Origin: an uncultured Thermoplasmatales archaeon
GTDB taxonomy: Archaea; Thermoplasmatota; E2; DHVEG-1
NCBI GenBank assembly: GCA_964391625.1
Contig: CAYMMP010000001.1
Coordinates: 1 to 62,040, forward strand
Direction: 5' to 3'
Length of the DNA: 62,040 bases
Position numbers and translations under genes: made by a program. Below the pieces are notes generated by a model. That model ran no database searches, was not told the DNA's origin, and worked only from the letters and a program-made list of their open reading frames with translations. Each line of letters begins with the position of its first letter. Within the stretch, counting starts at the first letter, position 1. Shown here in pieces: positions 300 to 16,979 of this stretch.

Positions 300-1355
300 T
301 TAAAATCCTAAAGTAAAAAAAACTAAACCTACTATCAATGCAAACACAAAATTAAATATTTTTATTAAAATGGAGTCTTTAATAGAATACGATAGCAAAG
401 GCAACATTCCATGACCATCTTGTGCAATAGAACTAGTCAACAATACAGAAAATGGCACTATTCCTGAAGCATACATCATGACAAAAACCATATGTGGACC
501 AGATTCAGGGATCATTCCTACTAGAGCGCTGACTATAAGGACTAAGCCTAAATTTGCTTCGACAAAACCTTGTAAATTCCAATATTGAAAACCAATTTGA
601 ACAAAAAGTAGAGCAAAAAACGTCCAAAGAAACACTCTCCATATGTGCTTCTTGGTGATATGTTCCCAAATATGCTCTTTGAAATAATGTTTTGAAGCTG
701 TTAAAATTATAAAAATTGCAAGGAGAGATAGTGACATTAGAAGAATTCTATCAGGCTCTTCAATACTCCAACTCTGAGGTCCCCAGATGCCAACAAGATT
801 CAATACTATAATGATAACAAAGAGCAATATTAGTCCGCATCTACTATACGACAATTGTAGAAAATTTTTTAATATAGATGGTTGAAATGGATGCCCTACA
901 TCAGCAGTATGAACCTTTTGCAACTTACATTCCTTACAGGGAATTATATGAAAAATTGATGCAATTTTATCAGCTATTGATGCACCAATGATTCCGAGAA
1001 CAAATAACAATGCAAAAAGAATCAGTGCTTCTCTAGGAAACTGCGTCAACATAACAAATGATTCGTCCCCTGAAGTAGCAATCATTCCTCCAACTATTGC
1101 ACCGAAAGTTATTATGCCATGAACATACAACGAAACGTTCATGAATGCTCCCAAGCATCCTGGGGTAGAGCCAAGAAATGAGGTTATTGTATACTGTCTT
1201 AATCTGCTACCTTCCACAGCATTTTTCATCCTCCCTCTAGTTAAAACGTTGAGATAGTCGATGATGACCATCATCACAAAGACGAAAATTGTTATCACAA
1301 TCGAGCGGTTGATTACTGATATTAGTTCAATCACCTCAAGCCCTCCTACTACCAA
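300..1355 (-). CDS. Polytopic membrane protein, possibly ArsP_2/DUF2899-like 10-TM exporter
   Basis: 351-aa ORF, hydrophobic throughout with about 10 predicted TM segments. It carries the motifs STPGCLGAF and TSGDESF. The family assignment is from memory only. Confidence 0.4.
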   Translation of the reverse strand: MVVGGLEVIELISVINRSIVITIFVFVMMVIIDYLNVLTRGRMKNAVEGSRLRQYTITSFLGSTPGCLGAFMNVSLYVHGIITFGAIVGGMIATSGDESFVMLTQFPREALILFALLFVLGIIGASIADKIASIFHIIPCKECKLQKVHTADVGHPFQPSILKNFLQLSYSRCGLILLFVIIIVLNLVGIWGPQSWSIEEPDRILLMSLSLLAIFIILTASKHYFKEHIWEHITKKHIWRVFLWTFFALLFVQIGFQYWNLQGFVEANLGLVLIVSALVGMIPESGPHMVFVMMYASGIVPFSVLLTSSIAQDGHGMLPLLSYSIKDSILIKIFNFVFALIVGLVFFTLGF

Positions 1356-1465: not shown

Positions 1466-2431
1466 TTAACTACTCCTTCCAATCATTTTTCTTATATAAA
1501 ATCTTTTATTTTTATACTCTACCGCTACAAGTTTGTCATCATGTATTAATTTTTCAACAACATCCCAATCGGACTTTGATTTCTTTAATAATTCTTCCAT
1601 ACCTTCTTCTCGCATAGGATGTACCGATGCAATACTTAGAATATCCTTTTCTATATCTCCAGTATATGCAAAGGCATTTCCTTCATAGCCAATAAGATAC
1701 TCGACATCAATTCCTTTTTCTCTAAAAGCATCATATGCCTTAACGATCATAACTTCTTTTGGTGGTTTAACCCATTGCTCAGCTGGTGGTCGTGTTGGGA
1801 CGGATATATAGCTTCTTTTTGGTTTTAATCTAGCAATAAAATCAGCAGTGTCCTCCAACACATCTATAGAATCGTTAACATTTTCTATAATCATAGTTTC
1901 TGTTACTAATTCACCATTAAATATCTGGGAAAACTCAGATATGCCATCCATTATTTTTTCAAATTTTAAAGAGTTATGAGGTCTATCAATTCTATGCCAA
2001 ATATCTTGATTTATCGTATCAATTTTTAAAGAAACCCAATCGGCTTTTTGCAAGTCATCCTGAACCTTTTTATCCCAGATCAAAGAAGCATTAGTAATAA
2101 CAGCAATTTTAATTTCTAAAGGCTTAAGCAGTTCAATTTCTTTACCAAGATTAATATCTAATGTTGGCTCGCCATCGGGGACAAATGTAAGATAATCAAT
2201 AGGTTCTTTTCTAGTTCTTGCTTCTCCTACTTTATCTTCTACGGCAGATACTATTTCATTTGGTTCATAGAATTCTCTTCGTTCAACTTGCATGTTATTT
2301 GTCCTTCCAAGTTGACAATAAACACAGGAATAGGTACAGATTTTTGGGGGAATATTATTTATGCCTAGACTTTTCCCAAGACGCCGTGAAGGGACAGGGC
2401 CAAAAGCAATCAATTTTTTTTCGTTTATCAT
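1466..2431 (-). CDS. Radical SAM enzyme
   Basis: N-terminal GPVPSRRLGKSLGINNIPPKICTYSCVYCQLG contains the CxxxCxxC [4Fe-4S]/SAM motif. At 321 aa the size is typical of the superfamily. Confidence 0.85.
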   Translation of the reverse strand: MINEKKLIAFGPVPSRRLGKSLGINNIPPKICTYSCVYCQLGRTNNMQVERREFYEPNEIVSAVEDKVGEARTRKEPIDYLTFVPDGEPTLDINLGKEIELLKPLEIKIAVITNASLIWDKKVQDDLQKADWVSLKIDTINQDIWHRIDRPHNSLKFEKIMDGISEFSQIFNGELVTETMIIENVNDSIDVLEDTADFIARLKPKRSYISVPTRPPAEQWVKPPKEVMIVKAYDAFREKGIDVEYLIGYEGNAFAYTGDIEKDILSIASVHPMREEGMEELLKKSKSDWDVVEKLIHDDKLVAVEYKNKRFYIRKMIGRSS

Positions 2432-2449: not shown

Positions 2450-3088
2450 TTAGCTAGTTTTATTTGCTTTTATCACAACAAAACTACCTTCCCCATGACC
2501 TTCTTTTACTGAATCTATTTTGTTGGAAGGGCTAGGAAAGACCGTTTGTTTGATTGAAATAACCTCAAAATGTGCTTTTCTTAAACAATCTGTTACTTCT
2601 TCAACTGAATAAAAAGTAGCATCTTTATAGAATTTACTGTTATCCCTTTTAAGCTGATATTGCGTCCCCATCTCACTATTTTTATCTACAAAACCAACAA
2701 TAATAAGACCATCAGGTTTTAAAACTCTATGCACCTCCTTAAAGGCTTCAACCAGATTATCGACGAAACAAATTGTTGTAACCATGAGAGCGAAATCAAA
2801 TGTCTCGCTATCAAAAGGCAATTTCTCTGCTACAGCCTCATAAACTTGTATTCCAAGGTTCCTTGCCATTTCTGCCATTTTTTTAGAAGGTTCTACACCA
2901 ACCTTTATTCCAAGAGGTAAAGCAAATCTACCAGAGCCAACACCAATTTCAACACCAGTTTTCCCAGAGGGAATTAAACTTTTTATGGCGTTAAGCTCAG
3001 CTAAATAAACAGTTTTATTTCTAACAAACCACTTATCGTATTCTTTACTATATTTTTCAAATGACTCAATTCTTGCCATCCACAACAA
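2450..3088 (-). CDS. Class I SAM-dependent methyltransferase
   Basis: Motif I GVEIGVGSGRFA, acidic loop VGVEPS, and a Methyltransf_11-like post-I/II pattern (FDFALMVTTICFV, LKPDGLIIV). An alternative start is M4 at 3079. Confidence 0.85.
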   Translation of the reverse strand: MLWMARIESFEKYSKEYDKWFVRNKTVYLAELNAIKSLIPSGKTGVEIGVGSGRFALPLGIKVGVEPSKKMAEMARNLGIQVYEAVAEKLPFDSETFDFALMVTTICFVDNLVEAFKEVHRVLKPDGLIIVGFVDKNSEMGTQYQLKRDNSKFYKDATFYSVEEVTDCLRKAHFEVISIKQTVFPSPSNKIDSVKEGHGEGSFVVIKANKTS

Positions 3089-3108: not shown

Positions 3109-4194
3109 CTACGCATGTTTAACTTTTTTAGAGAAATACTTGCCCACTATTTTTTGTTTGTTAGTAAAATAAATAAGGCTTTGTTTTACCAGGACGTAAA
3201 GCCATACCACCAACAAAACGAAATACAGTAAATAATACAACAGTTTAACAAACGAAAAATTAATCACAAATACATAAAGATTTGCAGTTGCCAATGTAAA
3301 AGCACCTGTTGGAAATATAAATGCCCACCATAGTTCAGAAAAAGGAATTTTCTTCTTCTCATTAATAATCCTATAATATAAAGATAGCAATCCAAACAAT
3401 ATCCATATGCCATAACCAAACATGATTACTGAATAAATTTTACTTACCCCTAGAAAAGAATTGCTAAAACCCAGAACATCATATTTTAACAGCGCCTTAG
3501 AGGTTGTTATTATAGCTAATATCGAAACTGCCACTGGGGCAAGAACAATATTGAATGTCGGAGTTACTTTTTCTTGAGAGAGTTCATAAAATTTACTTCT
3601 AAAGTATACTAAAGTTAATGTAAGCAAATAAAGAATGAAAGCAGGTCCAAATAAAAAAAGATTTATTATGAGTATGGGTGTAGAAATAAAATCAGCCCTC
3701 AATGCCAAAGTCGAACCAGCTGTTATTAAAACAAAAAGCCCCACTGGTGGAAGAAGCCAGGTTCCACTGACCTGTTCAACCTTTGATCTAAATTTCAAAT
3801 TAATTGGAACTAAGACTACAAATATTAGAGAAAACAATAGACTAATAGACCAGAAAAAAATACTGACAATAATAGCATACTCATTAAGATAAGGCAATCC
3901 TATATTAACCAACATTAGTGAAATTAAAGCAGCAGCTATAGGAATAGCTGAATATAAATTTGATTTTATGGGATTCTTCAGGTTTTCGACAAGATCCTTT
4001 TTTTCAAATATGTGGATTATAAATTTTAAGAAATACAGTAAAAACATGAATATCACAGATATCTCAAGTAGATATGAAAACATGTTTGCTAAAACATTAT
4101 TATTAAAAATTATCTTTGAAGATAATGCTAAAGCCGATGTGCCCATTAGAGCAATAAAGACAATTAAATTGAAGTTTTTTTTATCCTCTTTCAA
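3109..4194 (-). CDS. 10-TM transporter, TehA/TDT (SLAC1)-like
   Basis: 361-aa hydrophobic ORF. The N-terminal ALMGTSALAL resembles the vMGtGgLal signature of tellurite-resistance/dicarboxylate transporters. It sits directly upstream of the methyltransferase, as in tehAB. Confidence 0.45.
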   Translation of the reverse strand: MKEDKKNFNLIVFIALMGTSALALSSKIIFNNNVLANMFSYLLEISVIFMFLLYFLKFIIHIFEKKDLVENLKNPIKSNLYSAIPIAAALISLMLVNIGLPYLNEYAIIVSIFFWSISLLFSLIFVVLVPINLKFRSKVEQVSGTWLLPPVGLFVLITAGSTLALRADFISTPILIINLFLFGPAFILYLLTLTLVYFRSKFYELSQEKVTPTFNIVLAPVAVSILAIITTSKALLKYDVLGFSNSFLGVSKIYSVIMFGYGIWILFGLLSLYYRIINEKKKIPFSELWWAFIFPTGAFTLATANLYVFVINFSFVKLLYYLLYFVLLVVWLYVLVKQSLIYFTNKQKIVGKYFSKKVKHA

Positions 4195-4302
4195 CTATCT
4201 CACCTACCTCTCTCATAACTTATGTTTTTTAACTAACTTTCAATATATAGATGCAAGCTCTAATTTTTGATTCTGTCACCAATCCCCCAACCAACTTGAT
4301 AA

Positions 4303-4890
4303 TTACTTAAATCTTTTCTTAATTGTTCCTATTTTCTTTTTCAATTCTATATCCAATATACCATTTTGATAACTTGTTTTTGCATAATCTTTATCAACCT
4401 TACAAGGCAGTTGCACTTTTTTGTAATATCTACTTTCTTCCCCATTTATTTCAATTATTACTTCACTTTCCACAACATCTATATCGATATCTCCATCTAA
4501 TGAAGTCATCGGAGTTTCAATGGTAATGCTTATCGTGTCATCCCATTCAATGACATCTATCGATGAATCTGTATCTTCAGGTGTTTGGTTTGATTCGCCA
4601 GATACATCTTGATTATCTAAATCCAAGAAGCTATTGAGTGATAAAGGATCTCTTCGGTTGTTGTAGCAAGGACATCTACATATAGGAAGACGCTCTTTTT
4701 CAGGGAAGGATATTTTTTCATTTATTGATTCATCCATAGGAAGATAGTTTTCCCACTTCTTAATTTCTCTGAGTTGTTTCTCAAGCTTATTAAAAAAATC
4801 TGATGATAAAGTATGTTTGGCATGAAGTGATATCCACCATTGGAGCTTTAGCCAATTCTCAAATGAATCGTCTTCTGTTTTATGCGACAT
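4303..4890 (-). CDS. Hsp20/alpha-crystallin-domain protein with unusual Cys-containing N-terminal half
   Basis: The C-terminus ISITIETP...VIIEINGEESRYYKKVQLPCKVDKDYAKTSYQNGILDIELKKK matches the ACD pattern (LP..vd...a.y.NGvL.i.l.K). The N-terminal half is unassigned and contains CRCPC. Confidence 0.6.
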   Translation of the reverse strand: MSHKTEDDSFENWLKLQWWISLHAKHTLSSDFFNKLEKQLREIKKWENYLPMDESINEKISFPEKERLPICRCPCYNNRRDPLSLNSFLDLDNQDVSGESNQTPEDTDSSIDVIEWDDTISITIETPMTSLDGDIDIDVVESEVIIEINGEESRYYKKVQLPCKVDKDYAKTSYQNGILDIELKKKIGTIKKRFK

Positions 4891-5096
4891 CTTCTCTTCC
4901 CTCTTTTAAAATTATATATTGCTATTATAACAAGCAAAAAATATTTATAAAAACTTCTGTAATAATTATAAATGGAAATAATATATCGACTTATATTTAT
5001 TAAGAAAAATTGCATAATTTGCTTATATCACAAATTTATTATTAGTTTAGTTTTTTGGAGGGACATCAAAAATTATAGTTTTCTTACAATATATTT

Positions 5097-5807
5097 TTAG
5101 ATGAGTGCGCTTAACCTTGCTTCATCAAAACCAACAACCGCCTCTCCTTCTATTACTGTAACTGGTGTTCCCGTTTGGCCAGATGCCTCTATCATCTTTT
5201 GTATCCCTGCAGGATCTCTTGAAACATTTACCTCAGTAAACGATACTCCTTTTGATCTCAGATATTCTTTTGTTCTGGCACACCATGGGCAACCATCAGA
5301 TGTATAAATAGTAACTCCTGAGCTGCCCCCTCCAAAACTTTCTGTTTTGTAGAGTGGTTTTGCACTCAGAACCTCATCAATTCTCAACATATTTATACTT
5401 GATTCCTTTGCCCTATAGAGTTCTGACAGAAAGAGATTTGCAGGCATAGTATTTTTTATATCTGTTGCATTATCTGCAATTAATTTCTTTGTAGACAAAT
5501 AAGCATCTAGCCGATTGTTTCCTGCATTTGCTGCTAGTGTTTTATATATGTCATCCATTACATCGGCTGTTCCTTCCATGGCAATAGATTCCTTGGTGCT
5601 TGTTAATACTGCAGCCTCTCGAATTTTATTTGCCATAAACAGATACATAAGTCCATATCCTGGAAGTACTCCAGATTCAAGGGCATTCAATCCATTTTTC
5701 AATCCTTTTTTTACCAGTTTTTCCATCTGCGCTTGGTATTTATTAGATATTCCATGAATGATTATTGTTGTTTTATTTGAATTTTTTACATCACTTAATA
5801 ATACCAT
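5097..5807 (-). CDS. Thermosome (group II chaperonin)-like C-terminal segment fused to glutaredoxin/NrdH-like domain
   Basis: MVLLSDVKNSNKTTIIIHGISN...LESGVLPGYG aligns with the thermosome mifvegc..kavtillRG...vvPGGGa region. The C-terminal 75 aa (VTIYTSDGCPWCARTKEYLRSKGVSFTEVNV...GTPVTVIEGEAVVGFD) form a CPxC glutaredoxin fold. The ATG at 5807 is preceded by GAGGTGG. The track ORF extends to 5864 inside the upstream gene. Confidence 0.7.
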   Translation of the reverse strand: MVLLSDVKNSNKTTIIIHGISNKYQAQMEKLVKKGLKNGLNALESGVLPGYGLMYLFMANKIREAAVLTSTKESIAMEGTADVMDDIYKTLAANAGNNRLDAYLSTKKLIADNATDIKNTMPANLFLSELYRAKESSINMLRIDEVLSAKPLYKTESFGGGSSGVTIYTSDGCPWCARTKEYLRSKGVSFTEVNVSRDPAGIQKMIEASGQTGTPVTVIEGEAVVGFDEARLSALI

Positions 5808-5817
5808 TTTTTCCACC

Positions 5818-6840
5818 TCAAGTTCTGCATACTCCACCAACACATCCTTCTTCCTTTGTATCATCTATCAATCCAATATATCCAATATCATTTTCAGAGA
5901 TGTTTGACATATTGACAAATTTTCCTCCACTGGATTGGGCAAGTGCCCTCATATCAGAATCGTTTATCTTTTCAAAGCCAGTAATTCCATTTCTTGCCAT
6001 CATTTCTGCTGCACGTGGATCAATCTCGCCCTTTGAAAAAACAGCATTCACTCCAAATTTTGTCAACCTATCAACAAAATCTTTTAGTTGACTCTCTTCA
6101 AAAGTTGAAGTAGCCGAATAGTTTTTTGTATTACTGATGTCGATTTTCACATCTAACTTTGTTTTTCTTGGAGTTATTTTGTCTAACAATGCTATCTTTG
6201 CATCGCTCAATTTATCAGGCATGTCCTCTCGCACTCTGTTGTAGTCTAGTTTAAGTCCAACAATAACTTCACTCCCTTCTCCATCTCCTTCAGCCAAAAC
6301 AGTTATATCCTCTTCTTTTGGTTCTTTTAAAAATAAGATAGCATCTCTTATAACAGAAAGAATATTATCTTTATCTGCGATAGTGTTAGAAATAGAGTGC
6401 TTTATAACATCCTCAAGTATTTCAACATCCTTACTTTTTATTTTCTTTGTTCTTTTTTGTGTCTCTTCAATTGCTATATTCATAGCCTTCTCATAACCTG
6501 CAAGAATGGTTGGCATACCGATACCGGTAGTTGAAAGATCGTGTGCTTTTACTATCAGTTTAGATAGAAGAAGTGCTAATGAAACAGTTCCATCACGAAA
6601 TTCTTTATATTGGGCATCTACACTTTTCTTAATCGGCTCAGCCGTAGGTCCTAATTCTACATTATCTAAAATTTCTTTACCATTAATTAGAATCTCTCCG
6701 TCATTAGTTAGTTTATACATACCATATGGCCCCAACAAAGAACTTACTGAACGTTCAATAGATTCCGCTTCTTTGGACCAAATGTTTGTTGGTTTTTTTA
6801 CTCTCTCTAAATCTTCTTTATATACGTTAAATATTGGCAT
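5818..6840 (-). CDS. Thermosome (group II chaperonin)-like N-terminal segment (equatorial-N, intermediate, apical)
   Basis: LLGPYGMYKLTNDGEIL matches tLGPkGmdKm..TNDGaTIL. The nucleotide motif GDGTT is degenerate (RDGTV). The ORF ends ...DIGYIGLIDDTKEEGCVGGVCRT, where thermosomes have dLGyAglVeerkvged. Confidence 0.7.
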   Translation of the reverse strand: MPIFNVYKEDLERVKKPTNIWSKEAESIERSVSSLLGPYGMYKLTNDGEILINGKEILDNVELGPTAEPIKKSVDAQYKEFRDGTVSLALLLSKLIVKAHDLSTTGIGMPTILAGYEKAMNIAIEETQKRTKKIKSKDVEILEDVIKHSISNTIADKDNILSVIRDAILFLKEPKEEDITVLAEGDGEGSEVIVGLKLDYNRVREDMPDKLSDAKIALLDKITPRKTKLDVKIDISNTKNYSATSTFEESQLKDFVDRLTKFGVNAVFSKGEIDPRAAEMMARNGITGFEKINDSDMRALAQSSGGKFVNMSNISENDIGYIGLIDDTKEEGCVGGVCRT

Positions 6841-6874
6841 GAGTTGCCGTAATGCTAGAAGGAGTATATAACGT

Positions 6875-6984: not shown

Positions 6985-7344
6985 TTATTTCATCTCTTTC
7001 TCAAAATGAGTGAGGGTTTCCTCCACATGTCTATACCATTCATCGATACACATCTTCATTTTCTTTTTAATTTGTTTTACGTCTGCACACGAATACACAT
7101 GATAATAGCCGCCTTTTTCTATCATTCTTGTTTCCTTGATACAAATCTCACAAGAAACCAATTTTTGTAGGGAGCGGTATACTGTACTTCGATCTTTGTT
7201 CAGTTTTTGTGCGAGTTCTTCCACTTTTGAGTTGCCTACTTTTTTTAATTCTCTATACACTTCAACATCTGCTTTATTAAGGTCAAAAGTACATTCTAGT
7301 ACGTTATTGCAATTAATATCTTTGTACGAACCAACCAATTTCAT
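6985..7344 (-). CDS. Winged-HTH transcriptional regulator (TrmB/MarR-like) with CxxC
   Basis: VEVYRELKKVGNSKVEELAQKLNKDRSTVYRSLQKLVS matches the TrmB-type HTH pattern (vY..L......elA......rs.vY..L..L). It contains a CEIC pair plus four other Cys. Confidence 0.6.
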   Translation of the reverse strand: MKLVGSYKDINCNNVLECTFDLNKADVEVYRELKKVGNSKVEELAQKLNKDRSTVYRSLQKLVSCEICIKETRMIEKGGYYHVYSCADVKQIKKKMKMCIDEWYRHVEETLTHFEKEMK

Positions 7345-7407: not shown

Positions 7408-7477
7408 ACGTTAAATAATACATGTAATATACTGGCACAAAAGCAGTTCGCTAATAAAAAGATAATAGGTGAAAAAT

Positions 7478-7813
7478 ATGAAAGAAGAATTACCAGACGT
7501 GCCAATTCAATTAACAGATGAAAATTTTGATGAGAATGTTAAGAAATATCCGACTATAGCTATAGACTGTTGGGCCCCATGGTGTGGTCCATGCAGGATG
7601 GTAGAGCCCGTTGTTGCAGATCTTGCCAAGGAAATGCAAGGGAAAATAGTTTTTGGAAAATTGAATGTTGACGAAAATCAAAAAACATCTATGAAATATG
7701 GCATTATGAGCATACCAACTTTACTTGTTTTTAAAAATGGAACTCTCATGGATAACATTATTGGTGCAATGCCCAAAGAAATACTTAAAGCTAAACTTGC
7801 CCCTTATGAATAA
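7478..7813 (+). CDS. trxA: Thioredoxin
   Basis: WCGPC active site (DCWAPWCGPCRM), MSIPTLLVFKNG cis-Pro loop, ~111 aa. ATG 7478 is preceded by GGTGA at 7468-7472. The track start, GTG 7469, is less likely. Confidence 0.9.
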   Translation: MKEELPDVPIQLTDENFDENVKKYPTIAIDCWAPWCGPCRMVEPVVADLAKEMQGKIVFGKLNVDENQKTSMKYGIMSIPTLLVFKNGTLMDNIIGAMPKEILKAKLAPYE

Positions 7814-7838: not shown

Positions 7839-8459
7839 ATGGTGATAATTATTAGAAAGAGGGCAAGACCTGTAGAAAAGAAATCAAAGATAAATACAAG
7901 TTTACTTGGTAATAGTAAACTTATTATAATTATTTTAATCCTTGTGATTATTGTTGTTGGTGTGATTATTGCATGGCAACAGCATCATGTAGATAATAAA
8001 GATACTGGAGATGATTTTGTATTTACTTCGCTTGACGGTACTTCAAAACATTTAAGCGATTACCGTGGCAAAGTGGTTATTTTAGACATGTGGGCTACCT
8101 GGTGTAGTCCCTGTCAGTTTCAAATGACTGAATTAAAAAAAACATATGAAGCATATAGCAGAGATGATCTAGAGATAATTTCTATTGATATTGATACCAG
8201 GGAAACTGTACAATTAGTCGAAAATTTTAGAAATGCTTTCAAACAACAAGGTATTGAATTAAATTGGGTTTTTGGTATGGATGATGGTAGCATTTGGGAG
8301 AAGTATATGTTAAATGGAGGGATACCAACCCTCTGCATTTTTGATCGAGAAGGAAAACTTAGCCTCCAACATGAAGGAATTGCTGTTTTTTCGGAAATCC
8401 CTCAAGGTTTGTCAGAAGACACTGTAAAACTTTCTCAAAAAATTGATAGTTTGTTGTAA
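7839..8459 (+). CDS. Membrane-anchored TlpA/ResA-like thiol:disulfide oxidoreductase
   Basis: One N-terminal TM helix (LIIIILILVIIVVGVIIAW) followed by a thioredoxin fold with MWATWCSPCQ and GIPTLCIFD. Confidence 0.8.
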   Translation: MVIIIRKRARPVEKKSKINTSLLGNSKLIIIILILVIIVVGVIIAWQQHHVDNKDTGDDFVFTSLDGTSKHLSDYRGKVVILDMWATWCSPCQFQMTELKKTYEAYSRDDLEIISIDIDTRETVQLVENFRNAFKQQGIELNWVFGMDDGSIWEKYMLNGGIPTLCIFDREGKLSLQHEGIAVFSEIPQGLSEDTVKLSQKIDSLL

Positions 8460-9140: not shown

Positions 9141-9446
9141 CTACATACCGCCTTTCCAACTTTCTTGCTCCATCATCAGAAATTTTTGTATCTCATCTTG
9201 ATTCATCATAGTTTGTTTTATTTCGACTTCTACACCAAGCTTCTCAATAGGTTCTTTTATACTGCTTATAAGCTGATCTATAATTGGGATATTCGGAAAA
9301 GGCAGCGCCATTATAACTAACACTCTGTTTTCTTCGACTGTAAACTCTTTAACTATTCCAAGTTCTAACAAACTGCGATCAATCGCTGGATGTTTAACTC
9401 CTTCTAGAATACTACGAATGCTTTTTTCTGAAATATTATCTACCAT
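9141..9446 (-). CDS. DUF59/MIP18 (SufT-like) Fe-S assembly family protein
   Basis: IRSILEGVKHPAIDRSLLELGIVKEFTVEENRVLVIMALP matches the DUF59 pattern (V.dPe....l.elG.v). It abuts the upstream gene. Confidence 0.65.
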   Translation of the reverse strand: MVDNISEKSIRSILEGVKHPAIDRSLLELGIVKEFTVEENRVLVIMALPFPNIPIIDQLISSIKEPIEKLGVEVEIKQTMMNQDEIQKFLMMEQESWKGGM

Positions 9447-10007
9447 CTACTCACGCTCCATCACTTTTAAATTTATATTTTTTTCACCAGCATATATCGG
9501 TATTTTAAGCCAGTTTTCAGGTGGTACAAACGGGCAAGCATAATTCTCACTATATGCACACCATGGACTATATGCTTTATTAAAATCAAGAATCCAATCT
9601 CCATTTTCAGTGCGATCACTTGGATCCAAGTCTATATATCGCCCTGCCCCATAGGTTTCTTTCCCATTTGTTGAATCTCGAAAAGGAATAAACAATCGTT
9701 CCTCATAGGGATTGCTTTTATATGCCTGGAGAGTGCACTGTTCATTCTCAACCTTGAATCGAAATTCTCCCCATCGTATAAACTGTCTGATAACTCCTTT
9801 TGTATCTTCGATTTGTATAGTTTCTTTATCAGCATGTTCATAAAGTTTCAATTCGAATCTAAGGTTTTGGTTAACTGGATAGTATTGTAACTTCTTAAAA
9901 TGTTCTCTATATTCAAATGGGATTGGTGATTGTGCATGTCTTTTAAAAAAAATATCTTTTTGCTCACGCTCGTTTATTATTTTTTCTTTCCACTCGAGAA
10001 GCTCCAT
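9447..10007 (-). CDS. DUF1684-family protein
   Basis: F..R...SP......F..L.YYPV....RF pattern, and a C-terminus with AYSPWCAYS..Y.CP.VP.EN, as remembered for DUF1684. Confidence 0.5.
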   Translation of the reverse strand: MELLEWKEKIINEREQKDIFFKRHAQSPIPFEYREHFKKLQYYPVNQNLRFELKLYEHADKETIQIEDTKGVIRQFIRWGEFRFKVENEQCTLQAYKSNPYEERLFIPFRDSTNGKETYGAGRYIDLDPSDRTENGDWILDFNKAYSPWCAYSENYACPFVPPENWLKIPIYAGEKNINLKVMERE

Positions 10008-10045
10008 TTCTTTCCCTCGTCATAATTCTTTTCATCCTATGTTAT

Positions 10046-10312
10046 CTATTGTTGCCCCCACCCTCGTAATCCTCTACCAATACCTCTTCCAAATCCTCCA
10101 CCAGTGCGATGAGGGTTTCTTCCTCTTAAAAGAGGATTCTCGCTATTAGGTCTTATGGCCTCCTGTGGACAAGCCGCAAAACATTTAGCACAAAATGTAC
10201 ATTTATTTTGATCTATATCTGCTTTTTTATTTTGCATCGATATTGCATTTTCAGGGCATGAATCAATGCAAACTCCACAACCTATACATCTATCTTGATC
10301 GATCCAAGGCAT
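10046..10312 (-). CDS. 2x[4Fe-4S] ferredoxin with Arg/Gly-rich C-terminal tail
   Basis: CIGCGVCIDSCP and CTFCAKCFAACP motifs. The tail reads RGRNPHRTGGGFGRGIGRGLRGWGQQ. Confidence 0.85.
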   Translation of the reverse strand: MPWIDQDRCIGCGVCIDSCPENAISMQNKKADIDQNKCTFCAKCFAACPQEAIRPNSENPLLRGRNPHRTGGGFGRGIGRGLRGWGQQ

Positions 10313-11315: not shown

Positions 11316-11747
11316 TTATAAAAAGATTTCATTAATGGCAGGATTTTTTCCCACCTCTTTGATTTTTCCTGTAAACTCGGTAGCCACCTTTGCATATTTT
11401 TGCCCTTCTGATGCGGAAACCCATGAAAGCCTAAAACGATTTGGCTCTAAACCAACCTCTTCAACAACTTTTTTTAACATCATAAATCGTCTACGGGTGT
11501 AATAATTTCCTTCTTGGTAATGACAATCTCCAGGGTGACAACCAGCCACAAGGACACCATCTGCACCGCCCAAGTATGCCCTTAAGATAAAAAGAGGATC
11601 AACTCTACTTGAGCACATAACTCTGATCGGCAAGATTGCAGGTGGGTACTGAAGTCTACTTGTTCCAGCTAGATCTGCTCCTGCATATGAGCACCAATTG
11701 CAAAGAAAGGCAAGTATCTTTGGGTTAAACTCTTCATCTTTCTTCAC
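11316..11747 (-). CDS. mvhD: MvhD/FlpD-type [2Fe-2S] electron-transfer subunit
   Basis: FLCNWCSYAGADLAGTSRLQYP...RVMCSSRVD...GADGVLVAGCHPGDCHY.EGN signature. The likely start is GTG 11747, preceded by AGGTGG; the track start GTG 11756 directly abuts the upstream TAG. Confidence 0.85.
   Translation of the reverse strand: MKKDEEFNPKILAFLCNWCSYAGADLAGTSRLQYPPAILPIRVMCSSRVDPLFILRAYLGGADGVLVAGCHPGDCHYQEGNYYTRRRFMMLKKVVEEVGLEPNRFRLSWVSASEGQKYAKVATEFTGKIKEVGKNPAINEIFL
11517..11567. repeat. 51-nt perfect repeat, copy 1 (inside mvhD 11316-11747)
   Basis: gtaatgacaatctccagggtgacaaccagccacaaggacaccatctgcacc is identical to 17196-17246, in the same orientation. Confidence 0.9.
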
Positions 11748-11756
11748 TCTAGCCAC

Positions 11757-12866
11757 CTATTTTTCAACTTCAGAAAATTCTTCTTTTTCAAATGTAACAA
11801 GAGGTAGAGGCTCATCTACATCTTTTCCTGGTATGTAATTAAACATTTTTTGGACGGATTCTCCCACTTTCTTGAAGATGGTTGCAAGTGGAATATCAAC
11901 AGGACAGACGTCATCACATGCACCACATCCTACACAGGAGATGCCGACATGTGTTAACCTCCCAAGCTGGTAATATAATACCCCTTGTGGAACTCTAACT
12001 CCCCCTCTTTTTTTAACTTCTGACTCATAACTAGAAGGCGAATATTCAGAATCAGGGGATTCGAACTCACACAGTTTGCAATAGCAGATAGGACACACTC
12101 TCATACAACCATGACAGCCAATACATTTTCCAAAAATGTCTACCAATCCACTTATCCCTTTCATCTCTGAATCGATTTTTTCAAAAAGTTTCTTCTCTTC
12201 TGCTTTTCTCTTATCGCGGAATTTATCTAGCGTCTCTTTATCTAGATCTTTTTCTAAGAACTCCCCTTTTATAACCTCAGCAAGCTCTTCTCCTTTTTTA
12301 GTATTAAGGAGCATCGTGAATTGTTTGTCAATATCTTTTTTTCCTATAAGATCAACAGTTATGTCTGCAGTGTATGGTATAAATTCCACACAACCTTTAC
12401 AAGCTGGTCGTATCTCTGCAGGGATCTCAGCTTTTTTAACTGCATCCCAATATTTGGAAAGGTTTTTTTCTATTGTACCATCTACCGCCATATTAGTTGG
12501 ATATACCCCGCCGCATGTTGAACTTATAATGAATAAATTTTCAAGGCTTCCCTGTTCACGTTTAATTAACTCTACAAAACCTCTTAATTCACATGGTTTC
12601 ACTACCGCAACAACTGGCTCCTTTGTGCTTCCTTTCAAGGTAAAACGCGAAAGAAGTTTACCAGCATTAACTGGCATCAATGGATAAAAAGGCACTGCAT
12701 TGTTTAGTTCTTCTGGTTCAGTAATAAGTGAATAAGCTATGGACCCTTCGTCGTTAATCTTTTTGAGTGTAAAGACTCCTTTAACTTTGCCATTTTTTAA
12801 AAGAAGTTTTAAGAACTCGAGGATACCTTGCTCAATATTTTTGTTTATTTTTAGAGCTTTGGTCAT
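11757..12866 (-). CDS. Fe-S oxidoreductase subunit, sulfhydrogenase-beta/AsrA/FlxB-C-like
   Basis: CIGCHGCMRVCPICYCKLC ... CVGCGACDDVCP, the same CxxCxxCxxxCPxCYC...CxxCxxCxxxCP layout as the HydB part of ORF 43448-45388. It has an ATGA overlap with the upstream gene and is a paralog of 12863-13999. Confidence 0.6.
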   Translation of the reverse strand: MTKALKINKNIEQGILEFLKLLLKNGKVKGVFTLKKINDEGSIAYSLITEPEELNNAVPFYPLMPVNAGKLLSRFTLKGSTKEPVVAVVKPCELRGFVELIKREQGSLENLFIISSTCGGVYPTNMAVDGTIEKNLSKYWDAVKKAEIPAEIRPACKGCVEFIPYTADITVDLIGKKDIDKQFTMLLNTKKGEELAEVIKGEFLEKDLDKETLDKFRDKRKAEEKKLFEKIDSEMKGISGLVDIFGKCIGCHGCMRVCPICYCKLCEFESPDSEYSPSSYESEVKKRGGVRVPQGVLYYQLGRLTHVGISCVGCGACDDVCPVDIPLATIFKKVGESVQKMFNYIPGKDVDEPLPLVTFEKEEFSEVEK

Positions 12867-13999
12867 TTTGCATCCTCCATCTCATGAAGCTCATCTTCTT
12901 TATAGCCCACCAGTGGAATTGGCTCGTCTAGACTTCTACCTGAAACATAATCAAATAAATCTTGCGTTTCATCAGCGACCATACTAAATATTTGAGCTAC
13001 GGGAATAGACATAGGACATGCATCTTCGCAAGATCCACATGATACGCATGAAAGGCTCATATGCATCATTCTACCCATATGGAAAAGAAGAGTGTCTGGT
13101 AAAAATCGAATGCTTCCCTTGCGTTCTGCCTGGTCAAGATAATCCTCAGACGTATGTTTTACTTTATCAGAATCGAAATAACATAGACGACAATAACAGA
13201 TTGGACAGACTTTCATACAATTGTGACAGTTTATACATTTACTAAATGTGTTGATTAGATTGTCAAGACCGGTTGTTTTGGCTTTTAAATCTTTATGGCT
13301 TTTTTCCCTCTTCTTATGCTTTTCCTCAAAAACGTCTTGTACTTTATTCCGCCAATCATCGACATTGTCTTTTAATTCTATGCCAAGTTTATTCATCACC
13401 TCGTTTCCTTTTTGACTATTTGAAACAATGAAAAAAGTACCTTTCTTTGCACCAAGAGTTCCTATATGAAGGTCTCCAGACACCATACTTGATTTATCAC
13501 ATATCTGGCACACCGGCCGCATTATTTTATCATCTGATCTCTTAACAGCATCTTCATATATCTTCATGCTTTTCTCAGGATCTTTAAGAAAATCAGAGAT
13601 AGGCATAACGCCTGGACAGTCCATGCTTATAAGAGTTATATTCTCTAAATTTGTTTGGTTAATCTTTGTTAATTCCACTGTTGCTCGTATCTCACAAGGC
13701 CGCATAACAGCGCCTATTTTCATATTTCCTTTTCCAAGTTTGGTCATACCAGAAATCGCCTTGGCTCCTTGAACGGACATAATCGGTGAAAGAGGGGCCG
13801 CATCCTTAAGAAGTGATTTATCCTCAATTAACACATATGCAAATGAATCGCCTGCTGGTACTCTCACAGGTACCAAAACAGCATCAAAAACTTTCTTATC
13901 CATCGCTTTTTTTAGGAACTCAATAATAGACTCATTTGTGTTCAGTTTAGTTGAAATGATTGCCCCTTTAGTTATAGGGGTACCTTCAACTTTGCTCAT
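12863..13999 (-). CDS. Fe-S oxidoreductase subunit, sulfhydrogenase-beta/AsrA/FlxB-C-like (paralog)
   Basis: CINCHNCMKVCPICYCRLC ... CVSCGSCEDACP. The N-terminal region (MRPCEIRATVEL) parallels VKPCELRGFVEL of the neighbouring paralog. There are ATGA overlaps on both sides. Confidence 0.6.
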   Translation of the reverse strand: MSKVEGTPITKGAIISTKLNTNESIIEFLKKAMDKKVFDAVLVPVRVPAGDSFAYVLIEDKSLLKDAAPLSPIMSVQGAKAISGMTKLGKGNMKIGAVMRPCEIRATVELTKINQTNLENITLISMDCPGVMPISDFLKDPEKSMKIYEDAVKRSDDKIMRPVCQICDKSSMVSGDLHIGTLGAKKGTFFIVSNSQKGNEVMNKLGIELKDNVDDWRNKVQDVFEEKHKKREKSHKDLKAKTTGLDNLINTFSKCINCHNCMKVCPICYCRLCYFDSDKVKHTSEDYLDQAERKGSIRFLPDTLLFHMGRMMHMSLSCVSCGSCEDACPMSIPVAQIFSMVADETQDLFDYVSGRSLDEPIPLVGYKEDELHEMEDAK

Positions 14000-15675
14000 T
14001 TAACAGCCTCCATAAGCTCTTGATAGATTTGATCGAAAGTAAAATGTTTAATAGTTGCTGCACCTGAAGGACAAGCAGCGGCACAATTTCCACATCCTCT
14101 GCATATTGCTTCATTTACAACAGATATCTTTTTTTCTTCGTTAAATGTAATAACACCATATGAACAGACAGATAGACATGTTTTACATCCCGTACAAAGC
14201 GATTCAGATATATGGGATACCTTTACTTCGGGTTCGATTTTTTTACCTGGCACGAGAGATGAAAGTATTTCACCAGCTGCAGCCTCTGATTGAACCATTG
14301 TCTCAGAGATGCTCTTTGGATCCTGGCTACTTCCGACAACGTATACTCCTTCTGTCGAAGTAGAAACAGGACCTAGCTTTTCGTGCTCTTCGGCAAAGAA
14401 ACCTCCATCGCCTTGGGACATTCCAATAATTTCAGCGAGTTTAGATGCATCAGATGTAGGTTCGATAGCTGATGAAAGTATCACCATATCAACTGATAGG
14501 TCGCTCTTTTTGCCAGTCTCGTCTTTATATTCAATATTTAATTTGCCATCCTTTTCTGTAATCTTAACATCCATTGACCTAACGAAATCAGTATTTCCTT
14601 TTGTTTGTTCATAGAACTTTTGATACGATTTTCCAGGGAGACATAAATCAGAATAAAAATTAGATACTTTAACATCTGGGATCTTGTTCGTAAGGTATCT
14701 AACAAATTTGAGAGAATACATGCAACAAATTTCTGAACAATATTTTTTTTCATTTCTGCCAACACAATGAATGATGGCAACTGATTTTGGTATTTTGCCG
14801 TTTTTGAGGGATATTTTCCCCGACAAATTCATTTTTTCAAATTCTAATGAATTAATGACGTTATCGAATTTCCCATATCCATATTGAGGAGTCTTTTTGG
14901 GATCAAATATGTTTGAACCAGTAGCCACCACTACTGCACCAACATCAAACTCAATAGGTTCCTCTTCTGTTTTTTTCTTTACTTTTATTTCAAAATTCCC
15001 AAAGAACCCTAAAACTTCTTCAACTTCACTATCAGTAAAGACTTTGATATTTTCATTATTATTCAAACTCTGAATTTTTTGATTTATGAGAGCAGAACTG
15101 GGCTGCATATCGGGAAAAGTTTTTTCAAAATTTGTTAATAGTCCACCTATTGACTGGGTTTTTTCAACAAGATAAACTTTTCTGTTCGCGCTTACAAGCT
15201 GTAAACTTGCCTCTATGCCGGCAATACCACCACCAATTACCAAAACATCAGTATTACATTCGATTTCTTTTTTCTCAAGGGGGGCATGATAACGAACTCG
15301 TCTAATAGCTGCTTTTGTTAAACGTATGGCTTTTTCTGTAGCCTCATCTTTATCTTCTGTAATCCAAGCACATTGCTCTCGGATATTGACAATTTGGAAA
15401 AGATATGGATTAATTCCTGCATTTTCACATACCTCCATAAAGGTTTTTTCATGTTGCTTTGGCGAGCATGCAGAAACCACCAAATGTGTTAGACCGTGTT
15501 TTTTAATTTCTTCTTCCAGGAATTTTTTACCATCTGACGAGCAGAGAAGCTTATATCGGTCAACAACTGCAACATCACTCATGGAAGAAACTGCATCAAT
15601 CACTTTGTCGATATCAACTTTTTCTGATATATTTGGGCCGCATTCACATATGTAGACGCCTATTTTCATTGTCAT
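13996..15675 (-). CDS. hdrA: HdrA-like flavoprotein, QmoB-like module (N-terminal Cys domain, FAD domain, C-terminal 2x[4Fe-4S])
   Basis: Starts MTMKIGVYICECGPNISEKVD (HdrA N-terminal domain). It has VLVIGGGIAGIEASL (FAD), IHCVGRNEKKYCSEICCMY, and C-terminal CTGCKTCLSVCS and CRGCGNCAAACP. The ATG at 15675 overlaps the upstream TGA (ATGA). The 36-codon upstream extension in the track is rejected. Confidence 0.8.
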   Translation of the reverse strand: MTMKIGVYICECGPNISEKVDIDKVIDAVSSMSDVAVVDRYKLLCSSDGKKFLEEEIKKHGLTHLVVSACSPKQHEKTFMEVCENAGINPYLFQIVNIREQCAWITEDKDEATEKAIRLTKAAIRRVRYHAPLEKKEIECNTDVLVIGGGIAGIEASLQLVSANRKVYLVEKTQSIGGLLTNFEKTFPDMQPSSALINQKIQSLNNNENIKVFTDSEVEEVLGFFGNFEIKVKKKTEEEPIEFDVGAVVVATGSNIFDPKKTPQYGYGKFDNVINSLEFEKMNLSGKISLKNGKIPKSVAIIHCVGRNEKKYCSEICCMYSLKFVRYLTNKIPDVKVSNFYSDLCLPGKSYQKFYEQTKGNTDFVRSMDVKITEKDGKLNIEYKDETGKKSDLSVDMVILSSAIEPTSDASKLAEIIGMSQGDGGFFAEEHEKLGPVSTSTEGVYVVGSSQDPKSISETMVQSEAAAGEILSSLVPGKKIEPEVKVSHISESLCTGCKTCLSVCSYGVITFNEEKKISVVNEAICRGCGNCAAACPSGAATIKHFTFDQIYQELMEAVK

Positions 15676-16979
15676 GCAGTTATATCTCCCTCCATTTTGG
15701 TTTTGGTTGCTGATAGTATTTTTCCTACTGCTGCATTTGCCTGTGAAACTGAATTTTGAATATTTTTTGGCCCTTGACAACATCCAGCAGCAAATATTCC
15801 TGGTTTTGATGTAACAACAGAAAAAACATCTTGATTTTCGCCTTTAAAAAACCCATATTCGTCAAGAGATACACCAAGAATCTTAGCAAGTTCAGAAGCA
15901 TCAGATTTAGGTTCAATAGCTGGTGCAAGTATTACCATATCAACCAGGAGATTGCTCTTTTTACCATTTTCATCTTTGTAATTGACTGTTATTTCCTTTC
16001 CCGATTTTGTAACTTCAACTACATTAGCGCGAATCATTTGAGTTCCTGTTTCTTTCATCTTTTCATAGAATTTTTGATGAGATTTCCCAGGGATGCAAAG
16101 ATCTGTATAAAATTCTGAAATCTTAATTTCAGGTATTTTGGATTTTAGATAATGATTAAATTTAAGTGAATATAAACAACATACTGCTGAGCAATATCCT
16201 TTTTCATCTCTACCAACACAATGAATGATAGCAGCTGATTTTGGAGTTTTTCCATTTTTTAAAAAAATCTGCCCTTCTGTCGGGCCATTGGAGGCATATA
16301 ATCTTTCGAACTCCATAGCAGTATACACATCATCAATTTTTCCGTATCCGTATTTAGGGGTTTTTTTAGAATCGAATATATCATATCCAGTAGCTACAAT
16401 AATGGCTTCAACTCCAAGTTCAATGCTTTCATCTTTTTGTTTAAAATCAATAGCTTCAAACGCACAAGCTTCTTGGCAAGCGTTACAACTTTTTCCTTTG
16501 AAATGAAGACAATGTTCAGTATCGATCATAGGTACATTTGGAAGTGCACCGGCACATGGAACATAGATGGCTTTCCTTTCACTAAGTCCCTCTTCAAACT
16601 CGTTTTTTAAACTAACTGGGCATGGATCAAAACAAGCATTGCATCCGATACAGTTTTGTAGATCCACATATCTAGCTTTTTTACGAATTTTTACAGTAAA
16701 ATTCCCAAGAGATCCTTTAACCTCTTCAACCTCTGCAAGCATTAGCAGGTTGATGTTTTTATCCTGCAATAGCTCTTGTTGCACTGGCGATACCATACAT
16801 GTAGAGCATTCCATATTAGAAAAAACTTCTTCAAATTTTATTACAGAGCCGCCAGTATATGATGTTTTCTCGACAAGATGTACCCTTCTTCCGGATTTGG
16901 AGAGCAGCAAACTTGCCTCAATCCCTGCTATACCTGCTCCGATAACCAATACATCTGTGTGTTGTTTTTTTTCACCCAT
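15672..16979 (-). CDS. hdrA: HdrA-like flavoprotein, QmoA-like module (FAD domain with inserted ferredoxin)
   Basis: DVLVIGAGIAGIEASL, NMECSTCMVSP, inserted CIGCNACFDPCP and CNACQEACAFEA, IHCVGRDEKGYCSAVCCLY. It has no HdrA N-terminal domain and no C-terminal ferredoxin. Confidence 0.8.
   Translation of the reverse strand: MGEKKQHTDVLVIGAGIAGIEASLLLSKSGRRVHLVEKTSYTGGSVIKFEEVFSNMECSTCMVSPVQQELLQDKNINLLMLAEVEEVKGSLGNFTVKIRKKARYVDLQNCIGCNACFDPCPVSLKNEFEEGLSERKAIYVPCAGALPNVPMIDTEHCLHFKGKSCNACQEACAFEAIDFKQKDESIELGVEAIIVATGYDIFDSKKTPKYGYGKIDDVYTAMEFERLYASNGPTEGQIFLKNGKTPKSAAIIHCVGRDEKGYCSAVCCLYSLKFNHYLKSKIPEIKISEFYTDLCIPGKSHQKFYEKMKETGTQMIRANVVEVTKSGKEITVNYKDENGKKSNLLVDMVILAPAIEPKSDASELAKILGVSLDEYGFFKGENQDVFSVVTSKPGIFAAGCCQGPKNIQNSVSQANAAVGKILSATKTKMEGDITA

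Follow-up and report, generated by a model that had tools for sequence, protein, structure and literature searches.

Can one chaperonin subunit be encoded by two separate genes, and what would a glutaredoxin be doing at the end of the second? The question is raised by a 62,040-nucleotide stretch of DNA from an uncultured Thermoplasmatales archaeon (assembly GCA_964391625.1, contig CAYMMP010000001.1, positions 1 to 62,040), referred to here as the window. On its minus strand, two adjacent open reading frames (ORFs) between positions 5,097 and 6,840 together resemble a single subunit of the thermosome, a group II chaperonin. A first-pass annotation, made from the sequence alone, had read the upstream ORF as roughly the N-terminal two-thirds of such a subunit and the downstream ORF as the next thermosome segment followed by a glutaredoxin-like domain. 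It had further proposed a genuine split into two polypeptides rather than random decay. The analysis described below shows that the gene pair is a conserved two-gene operon for the halves of one group II chaperonin subunit. What the two halves do together can be answered only tentatively.

The pair and its surrounding signals, in the order in which they would be transcribed, are as follows.

6865..6871, minus strand: TTATATA, a TATA-box-like sequence about 28 nucleotides (nt) upstream of the ATG of gene 1; its position suggests a promoter role.

5818..6840, minus strand: gene 1 (ORF1), the N-fragment, with the equatorial-N, intermediate-N and apical domains and a helical protrusion of lid length, assigned from Pfam, NCBIfam and alignments to Protein Data Bank (PDB) chains.

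5821..5844, minus strand: the tail of gene 1, CVGGVCRT (Cys333 and Cys338), placed at the turn of the final apical beta-hairpin; found at all 18 loci, and modelled with a predicted local distance difference test score (pLDDT) below 50.

5808..5820, minus strand: the junction, with a TGA stop codon, a Shine-Dalgarno-like GGTGG and an AAAAA spacer, read from the sequence and compared with the boxes in relatives.

5355..5807, minus strand: the chaperonin part of gene 2 (ORF2), residues 1 to about 151, with the last apical strand, intermediate-C and equatorial-C, ending LRIDEVLSAKPL; assigned from Pfam, PDB mapping and a motif census.

5319..5354, minus strand: a linker rich in Gly and Ser, roughly 12 residues long (YKTESFGGGSSG), that joins the end of the equatorial domain to the glutaredoxin; seen in alignments, pLDDT below 50.

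5097..5318, minus strand: the glutaredoxin (Grx) domain of gene 2, residues 164-236 plus stop, with CPWC at 5291-5280; assigned from PF00462, TIGR02196 and alignment to E. coli Grx3 (1fov).

5068..5072, minus strand: a run of T about 25 nt past the stop of gene 2, by its sequence and place a possible archaeal oligo-T terminator.

Profile searches, a check named beforehand, support Cpn60/TCP-1 homology for both halves. ORF1 (340 amino acids, aa) aligns with positions 1-317 of the 490 in Pfam Cpn60_TCP1 (E 6e-47) and thus covers the first two-thirds, from the N-terminus, of a chaperonin of group II. ORF2, read from its true start at 5807 to 5097 (236 aa), takes up the remaining third at positions 314-449 (E 4e-14) and ends in the glutaredoxin, which matches PF00462 with 62.5 bits (cut-off 22.9, E 4e-17). 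The best NCBIfam match of ORF2 is the YruB family TIGR02196, at 81.3 bits just under the cut-off of 88.55. The NCBIfam thermosome model (TIGR02339, cut-off 671 bits) gives 157.3 bits for ORF1 and 48.5 bits for ORF2. A thermosome subunit is a single chain of about 520-560 aa; here there are two ORFs of 340 and 236 aa. In the source annotations, homologues are called “hypothetical protein”, “chaperonin GroEL” or “glutaredoxin-like YruB-family protein”.

At the junction, read along the minus strand, the codons for GCVGGVCRT are followed by TGA (5820-5818), GGTGG (5817-5813), AAAAA and the ATG at 5807 that opens MVLLSDV, exactly as first described. Automatic gene calls place the start of ORF2 at the ATG at 5864 instead, giving a protein of 255 aa and a 47-nt overlap with ORF1. 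The extension upstream of 5807 is not conserved, and the Met at 5807 is the start of nearly all homologues, so that the public entries (P0001 and its cluster) are 19 residues too long. A two-gene operon is suggested by the TATA-like box ahead of gene 1, the lack of room for a promoter between the genes, the Shine-Dalgarno box before gene 2 and the T-run after it. TTATATA would then be a putative archaeal promoter, from which a bicistronic mRNA with a short leader or none would be transcribed.

Evidence for a genuine split can be provided by relatives that carry the same arrangement, and 18 related loci, from metagenome-assembled genomes (MAGs) of Thermoplasmata, were read across the junction. 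All 18 carry the same gene pair: an ORF of about 340 aa with the cysteine tail ends just 5' of the ATG of the C-fragment. Split, tail and Grx occur together in every relative found, which bears out the earlier proposal of two real polypeptides. Homologues of ORF2 form 37 clusters at 90% identity, ranging from 99% down to about 42% identity, and all consist of the C-terminal part of Cpn60 plus Grx. They are about 229-246 aa long, the exceptions being a few truncated fragments and some extensions made by gene callers. The N-fragment homologues (P0038-P0063) all have lengths of about 335-358 aa. The whole family derives from uncultured MAGs, and all named C-fragment homologues come from Thermoplasmata or Thermoplasmatales. 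The window protein itself was found identical in NCBI, JGI, ENA and Logan assemblies.

The details of the junction vary from locus to locus. Gene 1 stops at TGA, TAA or TAG; gene 2 follows after 4-16 nt, with a frame offset of 0, 1 or 2. Relatives have a Shine-Dalgarno box, GGTGA or GGAGG, either within the spacer or at the stop codon itself. Unsplit or Grx-less relatives were looked for among the homologues and none was found. Likewise, no unsplit chaperonin-Grx protein appeared when 1.84 billion protein representatives (drawn from 15 billion proteins) were searched with a profile of the C-fragment; only four clusters, at 50% identity, covered the whole profile, all of them 229-251 aa long. 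The nearest full-length thermosomes found are just 27-30% identical to ORF1. The opposite of a split was also met with: P0079 (1057 aa) and P0091 (1047 aa) each consist of two complete thermosome units fused in tandem, with GDGTK/GDGSK P-loops.

Could the two ORFs nevertheless yield one polypeptide, or none at all? In the window ORF2 lies in the +1 frame behind a TGA, and in 7 of the first 15 loci examined the two genes are in frame, as might be expected if a programmed frameshift or readthrough (selenocysteine at TGA, pyrrolysine at TAG) joined them. Since stops, frames and spacer lengths all vary, no indel, frameshift or readthrough rule fits every locus; in addition, the Shine-Dalgarno box and ATG are conserved, and the alignment of C-fragments begins exactly at that Met. 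Recoding is thus very improbable, and the use of every stop codon and every frame among the loci led to the rejection of selenocysteine or pyrrolysine readthrough in particular. An intein or trans-splicing was rejected as well: there is no intein domain, and only eight residues follow the first Cys. A decaying thermosome pseudogene, or an indel of sequencing or assembly, would agree with the degenerate catalytic motifs described below and with an extra break in one N-fragment. In that case, MAG GCA_053938305.1 (L004, 4962-5984), the N-fragment is called in two pieces of 195 and 138 aa. The same sequence in an independent Logan assembly (L005) has an unbroken N-fragment of 340 aa, so the break probably arose in assembly or is a lesion at the level of the strain. 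Both ORFs are unbroken in the other 17 of the 18 loci despite divergence to as little as about 40% identity, the architecture recurs in independent assemblies from NCBI, JGI, ENA and Logan and in four clusters at 50% identity, and invariant motifs are kept while their codons turn over synonymously. Decay or artefact is therefore hardly credible. In short, the same split in all relatives, with varied stops and frames, excludes sequencing error, frameshifting, readthrough and decay. The first-pass annotation had named three results that would speak against it, namely a frameshift error, intact Grx-less thermosomes in relatives and a lack of profile support for Cpn60/TCP-1 homology, and none of the three was found.

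Where in the subunit does the break fall? It was located with an alignment of 15 concatenated pairs and six canonical thermosomes, together with HMMER alignments to PDB chains. The break lies within the final apical beta-hairpin, at its turn (...LGxAGlVEERK-IGDD / kMxFVEGCKNPKAVTIL...). The first residue of the C-fragment is the Met that opens the second strand of this hairpin, and the CxGGxC motif is an insertion of about four residues in its turn relative to thermosomes. The helical protrusion, or lid, has the same length as in thermosomes. The stem-loop is four residues shorter, and most members lack an equatorial hairpin of about 20 aa. Residues 1-115 of ORF2 map without gaps to residues 353-468 of the M. 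maripaludis chaperonin Mm-cpn in the HMMER alignment to its PDB chain. The chaperonin part runs on to the terminal helix, LRID(E/D)V(L/I)SAKP, and is followed by the Gly/Ser linker and then by Grx. Chaperonin C-termini protrude into the central cavity (PMC4379175). Coming after this helix and a linker, the Grx occupies the place of the flexible C-terminal tail of a thermosome.

The structure of the two chains together was a further check named in advance. An AlphaFold2 model was made of the two window chains joined head to tail, from an alignment of N-fragments, C-fragments and thermosomes. It has a mean pLDDT of 80 and a predicted TM-score (pTM) of 0.63. Foldseek aligns it over about 500 columns with group II chaperonin subunits (1q2v, 3izi and 1a6d) at TM-scores of 0.79-0.81, normalised by target length, and chains of TRiC are also matched. 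As modelled, the two halves together rebuild one complete thermosome subunit. A helix at 238-261 is predicted for the helical protrusion, with residues 228-235 below a pLDDT of 50, and residues 505-575, in the Grx, are predicted to alternate between strands and helices. The pLDDT also falls below 50 precisely at residues 330-339, the tail and junction, and at 492-503, the linker, so that both the cysteine tail and the Grx linker are predicted to be disordered. Taken together, this anatomy of a split, Grx-bearing chaperonin pair can be stated with high confidence.

The pair does not keep the equipment of an ATP-driven machine. In a motif census, 33 non-redundant N-fragments and 47 C-fragments were compared with 12 canonical chaperonins, with the following results.

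Asp of (T/S)NDG: canonical 12 of 12, family 0 of 33.

Asp of GPxGxDK (GMDK): canonical 11 of 12, family 0 of 33.

Lys of the nucleotide-sensing loop: present in canonical chaperonins, deleted in the family.

Catalytic Asp (Mm-cpn D386): canonical 11 of 12, family 0 of 47 (Lys or Arg in 45, Ala in 2).

Glu of GGGxxE: canonical 12 of 12, family 0 of 47.

In the window, the equivalent of D386 is Lys34 of gene 2, a position fixed by the ungapped stretch shared with Mm-cpn. The first-pass readings of RDGTV in place of GDGTT and of LPGYGL in place of VPGGGA, like those of CVGGVCRT and GCPWC, agree with the sequence. Its reading of “TNDGEIL” as the canonical motif has to be given up: HMMER and MAFFT align this segment to the thermosome “VDSLGDV”, ING stands at the true NDG position, and all members lack the NDG Asp. 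The DGT core of the P-loop is retained in 31 of the 33 N-fragments, and GPxG, PGxG and NxG are largely kept. With the hydrolysis residues lost and these motifs kept, nucleotide binding is possible and hydrolysis very unlikely.

What has been conserved with great care is a set of four cysteines. Nearly every N-fragment has exactly two, arranged as C-[VIA]-G-G-[VI]-C and followed by two or three residues and the stop. This C-x-G-G-x-C tail is present at all 18 loci and in all complete N-fragments, and in the window it lies two residues from the carboxyl end. Nearly every C-fragment also has exactly two, those of the CP[WYH]C of Grx. CP[WYH]C and G-T-P-V, which contains the cis-Pro, do not vary among 23 aligned members or in any of the 37 homologues. 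Across the 18 loci, the codons of the tail motif vary synonymously at every position (TGT/TGC, GTN, GGN) and the peptide does not change, which shows that the tail itself is under purifying selection. Codon turnover was used in place of a ratio of nonsynonymous to synonymous substitution rates (dN/dS), since the DNA pairs are at most 65% identical in amino acids and their synonymous sites are saturated. The active-site Pro of a CPxC motif marks classical dithiol oxidoreductase glutaredoxins and disfavours iron-sulphur (Fe-S) binding. Going by this invariant residue, the Grx of the second half appears to be of the classical dithiol type.

A different kind of association between glutaredoxins and chaperonins is seen in bacteria. 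The stand-alone bacterial Grx genes most similar to the fused domain, which are YruB-like, are adjacent to groES-groEL in 10 loci. Eight of these belong to Myxococcota or other deltaproteobacteria (L052, L053, L055, L059, L063, L064, L067 and L077) and two to Chloroflexi/Anaerolineae (L018 and L023). The Grx gene lies within about 0.5-0.8 kb of groES-groEL; in L052, for instance, GroES is at 3414-3755, GroEL at 3793-5424 and Grx at 5923-6252. Such a linkage of chaperonin and glutaredoxin genes in two bacterial lineages is independent of the archaeal fusion and supports a coupling of the two activities.

One model for the function of the pair is a thiol-disulfide relay. In this model, the two chains would reassemble through their shared hairpin into a thermosome-like subunit. 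Having no ATPase of its own, the subunit would act as a chaperonin-like holdase or cage. Recharged by a cellular reductant, the Grx would trade electrons with the two Cys of the swinging tail at the C-terminus of the first half. Client proteins bound to the subunit would then have their incorrect disulfides reduced or isomerised by this tail. The advantage that has kept the genes split would be a free and mobile C-terminus for the CX4C motif. An ATP-independent chaperonin-like scaffold with such a relay, from Grx through the CX4C tail to the client, is a plausible proposal held with more doubt than belief. Its more specific form is a redox foldase, in which the CX4C arm relays electrons between a cavity-sited Grx and the clients of an ATP-independent thermosome-like ring; this form should be considered conceivable and on the unlikely side.

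A precedent for such a swinging dithiol can be found in ribonucleotide reductases (RNRs). In the alpha subunit of the E. coli enzyme (NrdA, 761 aa), the C-terminal tail is disordered and bears the redox-active Cys754 and Cys759 (PMC4728125). Throughout class I, RNRs re-reduce the active site by means of a C-terminal Cys pair of this kind, with thioredoxin (Trx), Grx or NrdH as reductant, and the Facklamia system has its Grx fused to the partner subunit (NrdB-Grx; PMC6187632). The archaeal pair likewise has a CX4C two residues from a free C-terminus predicted to be disordered, and a dithiol redoxin on the partner polypeptide, as in Facklamia. A shuttle dithiol can be recognised by a Cys pair in the last ten or so residues of a flexible, free C-terminus; this is what is found at all 18 loci, with a pLDDT below 50 at residues 330-339 of the model. 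There is no homology between the two systems, and the likeness is one of design; the archaeal pair is known from sequence and model.

Physical coupling of a thioredoxin fold to a chaperonin also has parallels. The chaperedoxin CnoX (YbbN) docks on GroEL (10.1101/2022.05.03.490446), and PhLP2A, a protein of the Trx fold, works with TRiC (PMC10837153, PMC9113939). As in the archaeal pair, a thioredoxin-fold module is brought to a chaperonin, for redox quality control or the handling of clients. Unlike the pair, in which the redoxin is covalently fused and the ATPase residues are missing, CnoX and the PhLPs are separate, reversible co-chaperones of ATP-driven chaperonins. The PhLPs, moreover, are without the CxxC active site of the pair's Grx.

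Several observations weigh against the relay. The parallels with RNR, CnoX and PhLP are analogies rather than homologies. The stem-loop that is shortened in the pair is the loop that knits thermosome rings together. The kept DGT, GPxG and NxG could mean that nucleotide is still bound and matters. Finally, no reductase partner, client or redox neighbour is conserved beside the pair across the 18 loci, all ORFs of which were clustered for this comparison.

The neighbourhood had been used in the first-pass annotation as an argument for a thiol-redox function. The genes that it listed are indeed present around the pair in the window, where a TehA/SLAC1 transporter is also found.

4303-4890, minus strand: Hsp20-like protein, a weak match to Pfam alpha-crystallin (23 bits) and a match below cut-off to NCBIfam archaeal Hsp20 (68 bits).

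6985-7344: TrmB/Sta1-like winged helix-turn-helix (wHTH) protein, by profile match.

7469-7813: thioredoxin, by profile match.

7839-8459: TlpA/AhpC-like protein, by profile match.

The argument from these genes does not extend to the relatives. The Hsp20-like, wHTH, TlpA and TehA/SLAC1 neighbours do not recur in three or more of the 18 loci, and the thioredoxin is the only one to do so, in three. The Hsp20-like protein has an unusual N-terminal extension of about 100 aa that contains CRCPC.

A second group of genes lies downstream of the pair on the same strand, and this arrangement is confined to the window's own subclade.

2450-3088, minus strand: S-adenosylmethionine (SAM) methyltransferase, found in 6 loci.

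1466-2431, minus strand: radical-SAM protein with a single CX3CX2C motif, found in 9 of 18 loci.

300-1355, minus strand: ArsP_2 “arsenic efflux” permease, found in 6 loci (NF037962, 134 bits, cut-off 100).

Absent from the window: small ArsP_1-type membrane proteins, found in 7 loci.

Besides the window, the cluster is found in L005, L006, L007, L009, L011, L017, L090 and L091. In relatives the cluster also contains two small membrane proteins of ArsP_1-like type and, in some cases, OsmC. The distant loci L001 and L002 likewise have ArsP_1 genes close to the chaperonin pair. Judged from its gene content, the cluster may be a metalloid or organo-arsenical module. Its place beside the pair could reflect a functional link to metalloid or thiol stress, or merely shared synteny.

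Iron-sulphur genes are found nearby as well. A DUF59/FeS_assembly_P protein and a small 2x[4Fe-4S] ferredoxin are encoded near the pair in the window (9141-10312, minus strand) and in L002 (7026-7642), the most distant relative, where a Mrp/ParA-type ATPase lies just upstream; the DUF59 protein recurs in three loci. An Fe-S link is possible. Farther off, at 11316-15783 on the minus strand, the window contains an MvhD-like gene, genes for two FrhB/FdhB-like Fe-S proteins and an HdrA-like gene. This group looks like an electron-bifurcation module of the heterodisulfide-reductase type, which fits the lifestyle of anaerobic sediment Thermoplasmata and lies outside the present finding.

Two further explanations accept the split and differ in what the halves are for. 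The pair may be a specialised, ATPase-dead subunit of the host thermosome that co-assembles with canonical alpha and beta subunits. The canonical subunits would then supply ATP-driven closure of the lid, and the split subunit would place a Grx and a dithiol arm in the chamber, so that the explanation differs from the relay described above in the assembly partner and not in the chemistry. Rings of this type are established, TRiC being a hetero-oligomeric group II ring that contains poorly hydrolysing subunits. The retained lid-length protrusion and equatorial LRID helix speak for co-assembly, as do the best fit of the model to closed thermosome subunits and the cavity-directed C-termini noted earlier. 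Against it stand the low identity of ORF1 to the nearest full-length thermosomes, the shortened stem-loop with the deleted equatorial hairpin, and the fact that no canonical thermosome gene was found in the 62-kb window or in any related locus. On balance, co-assembly is unlikely.

Alternately, the cysteines may serve to clasp the halves, as a site for Zn, Fe-S or As(III) or as an inter-chain disulfide. Such a clasp could be an Hsp33-like on/off switch of a holdase, or could sequester metalloid together with the downstream arsenic-efflux cluster. There are exactly four conserved Cys per heterodimer, and both the methyltransferase, radical-SAM and ArsP-type permease genes that follow the pair in the window's subclade and the ArsP_1 genes of L001 and L002 would suit this explanation. 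However, the Pro of CP[WYH]C is invariant, a feature typical of oxidoreductase glutaredoxins and unfavourable to Fe-S, and scans of Pfam and NCBIfam matched no metal-binding family. In addition, the permease cluster is missing beside the pair in a distant subclade (L012-L016 and L089), so that its presence elsewhere may reflect only shared synteny. A clasp or metal site is a distinctly improbable explanation.

How new is such a protein? The closest known system is the thermosome itself, as in T. acidophilum (1A6D) or Mm-cpn (3KFB). The pair has homology to it over the whole subunit, the same three-domain fold at a TM-score of about 0.8, a lid-length protrusion and the GPxG, DGT, PGxG, NxG and LRID signatures. 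Unlike a thermosome subunit, it consists of two polypeptides, broken in the last apical hairpin; it is without the NDG Asp, the D386 equivalent, the sensing-loop Lys and the GGGxxE Glu; its stem-loop and equatorial hairpin are reduced as described; and it has a Grx instead of the flexible C-terminal tail, plus the added CX4C tail. By its sequence, then, the pair is homologous to a known family, yet fails its single-chain and ATPase-residue features and adds two new elements. Departure from the canonical ATPase cycle has occurred elsewhere among group II chaperonins: BBS6/MKKS, BBS10 and BBS12 are paralogues that have left it for specialised roles (PMC2846930). In contrast with the pair, the BBS proteins are eukaryotic and single-chain, have no redoxin fusion and serve an unrelated function. 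Full-text literature searches found nothing relevant on a split thermosome or a chaperonin-glutaredoxin fusion, in agreement with the earlier statement that no description of either was known.

Chaperonins are among the best-studied protein machines, and a natural split subunit, ATPase residues lost throughout a family and an oxidoreductase joined by fusion are undescribed among them. With two genes and four cysteines, the system is small and directly testable in vitro. If the redox foldase were correct, the pair would provide both the first example of a chaperonin split by nature and the first of one with an oxidoreductase covalently built in. If the relay exists, it would be a clear natural case of a gene split that was selected for a functional free C-terminus. 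It would also mean that archaea have hard-wired the redox quality control of a chaperonin, for which bacteria use the detachable CnoX on GroEL, and of which the Trx-fold PhLPs on TRiC would be a eukaryotic echo.

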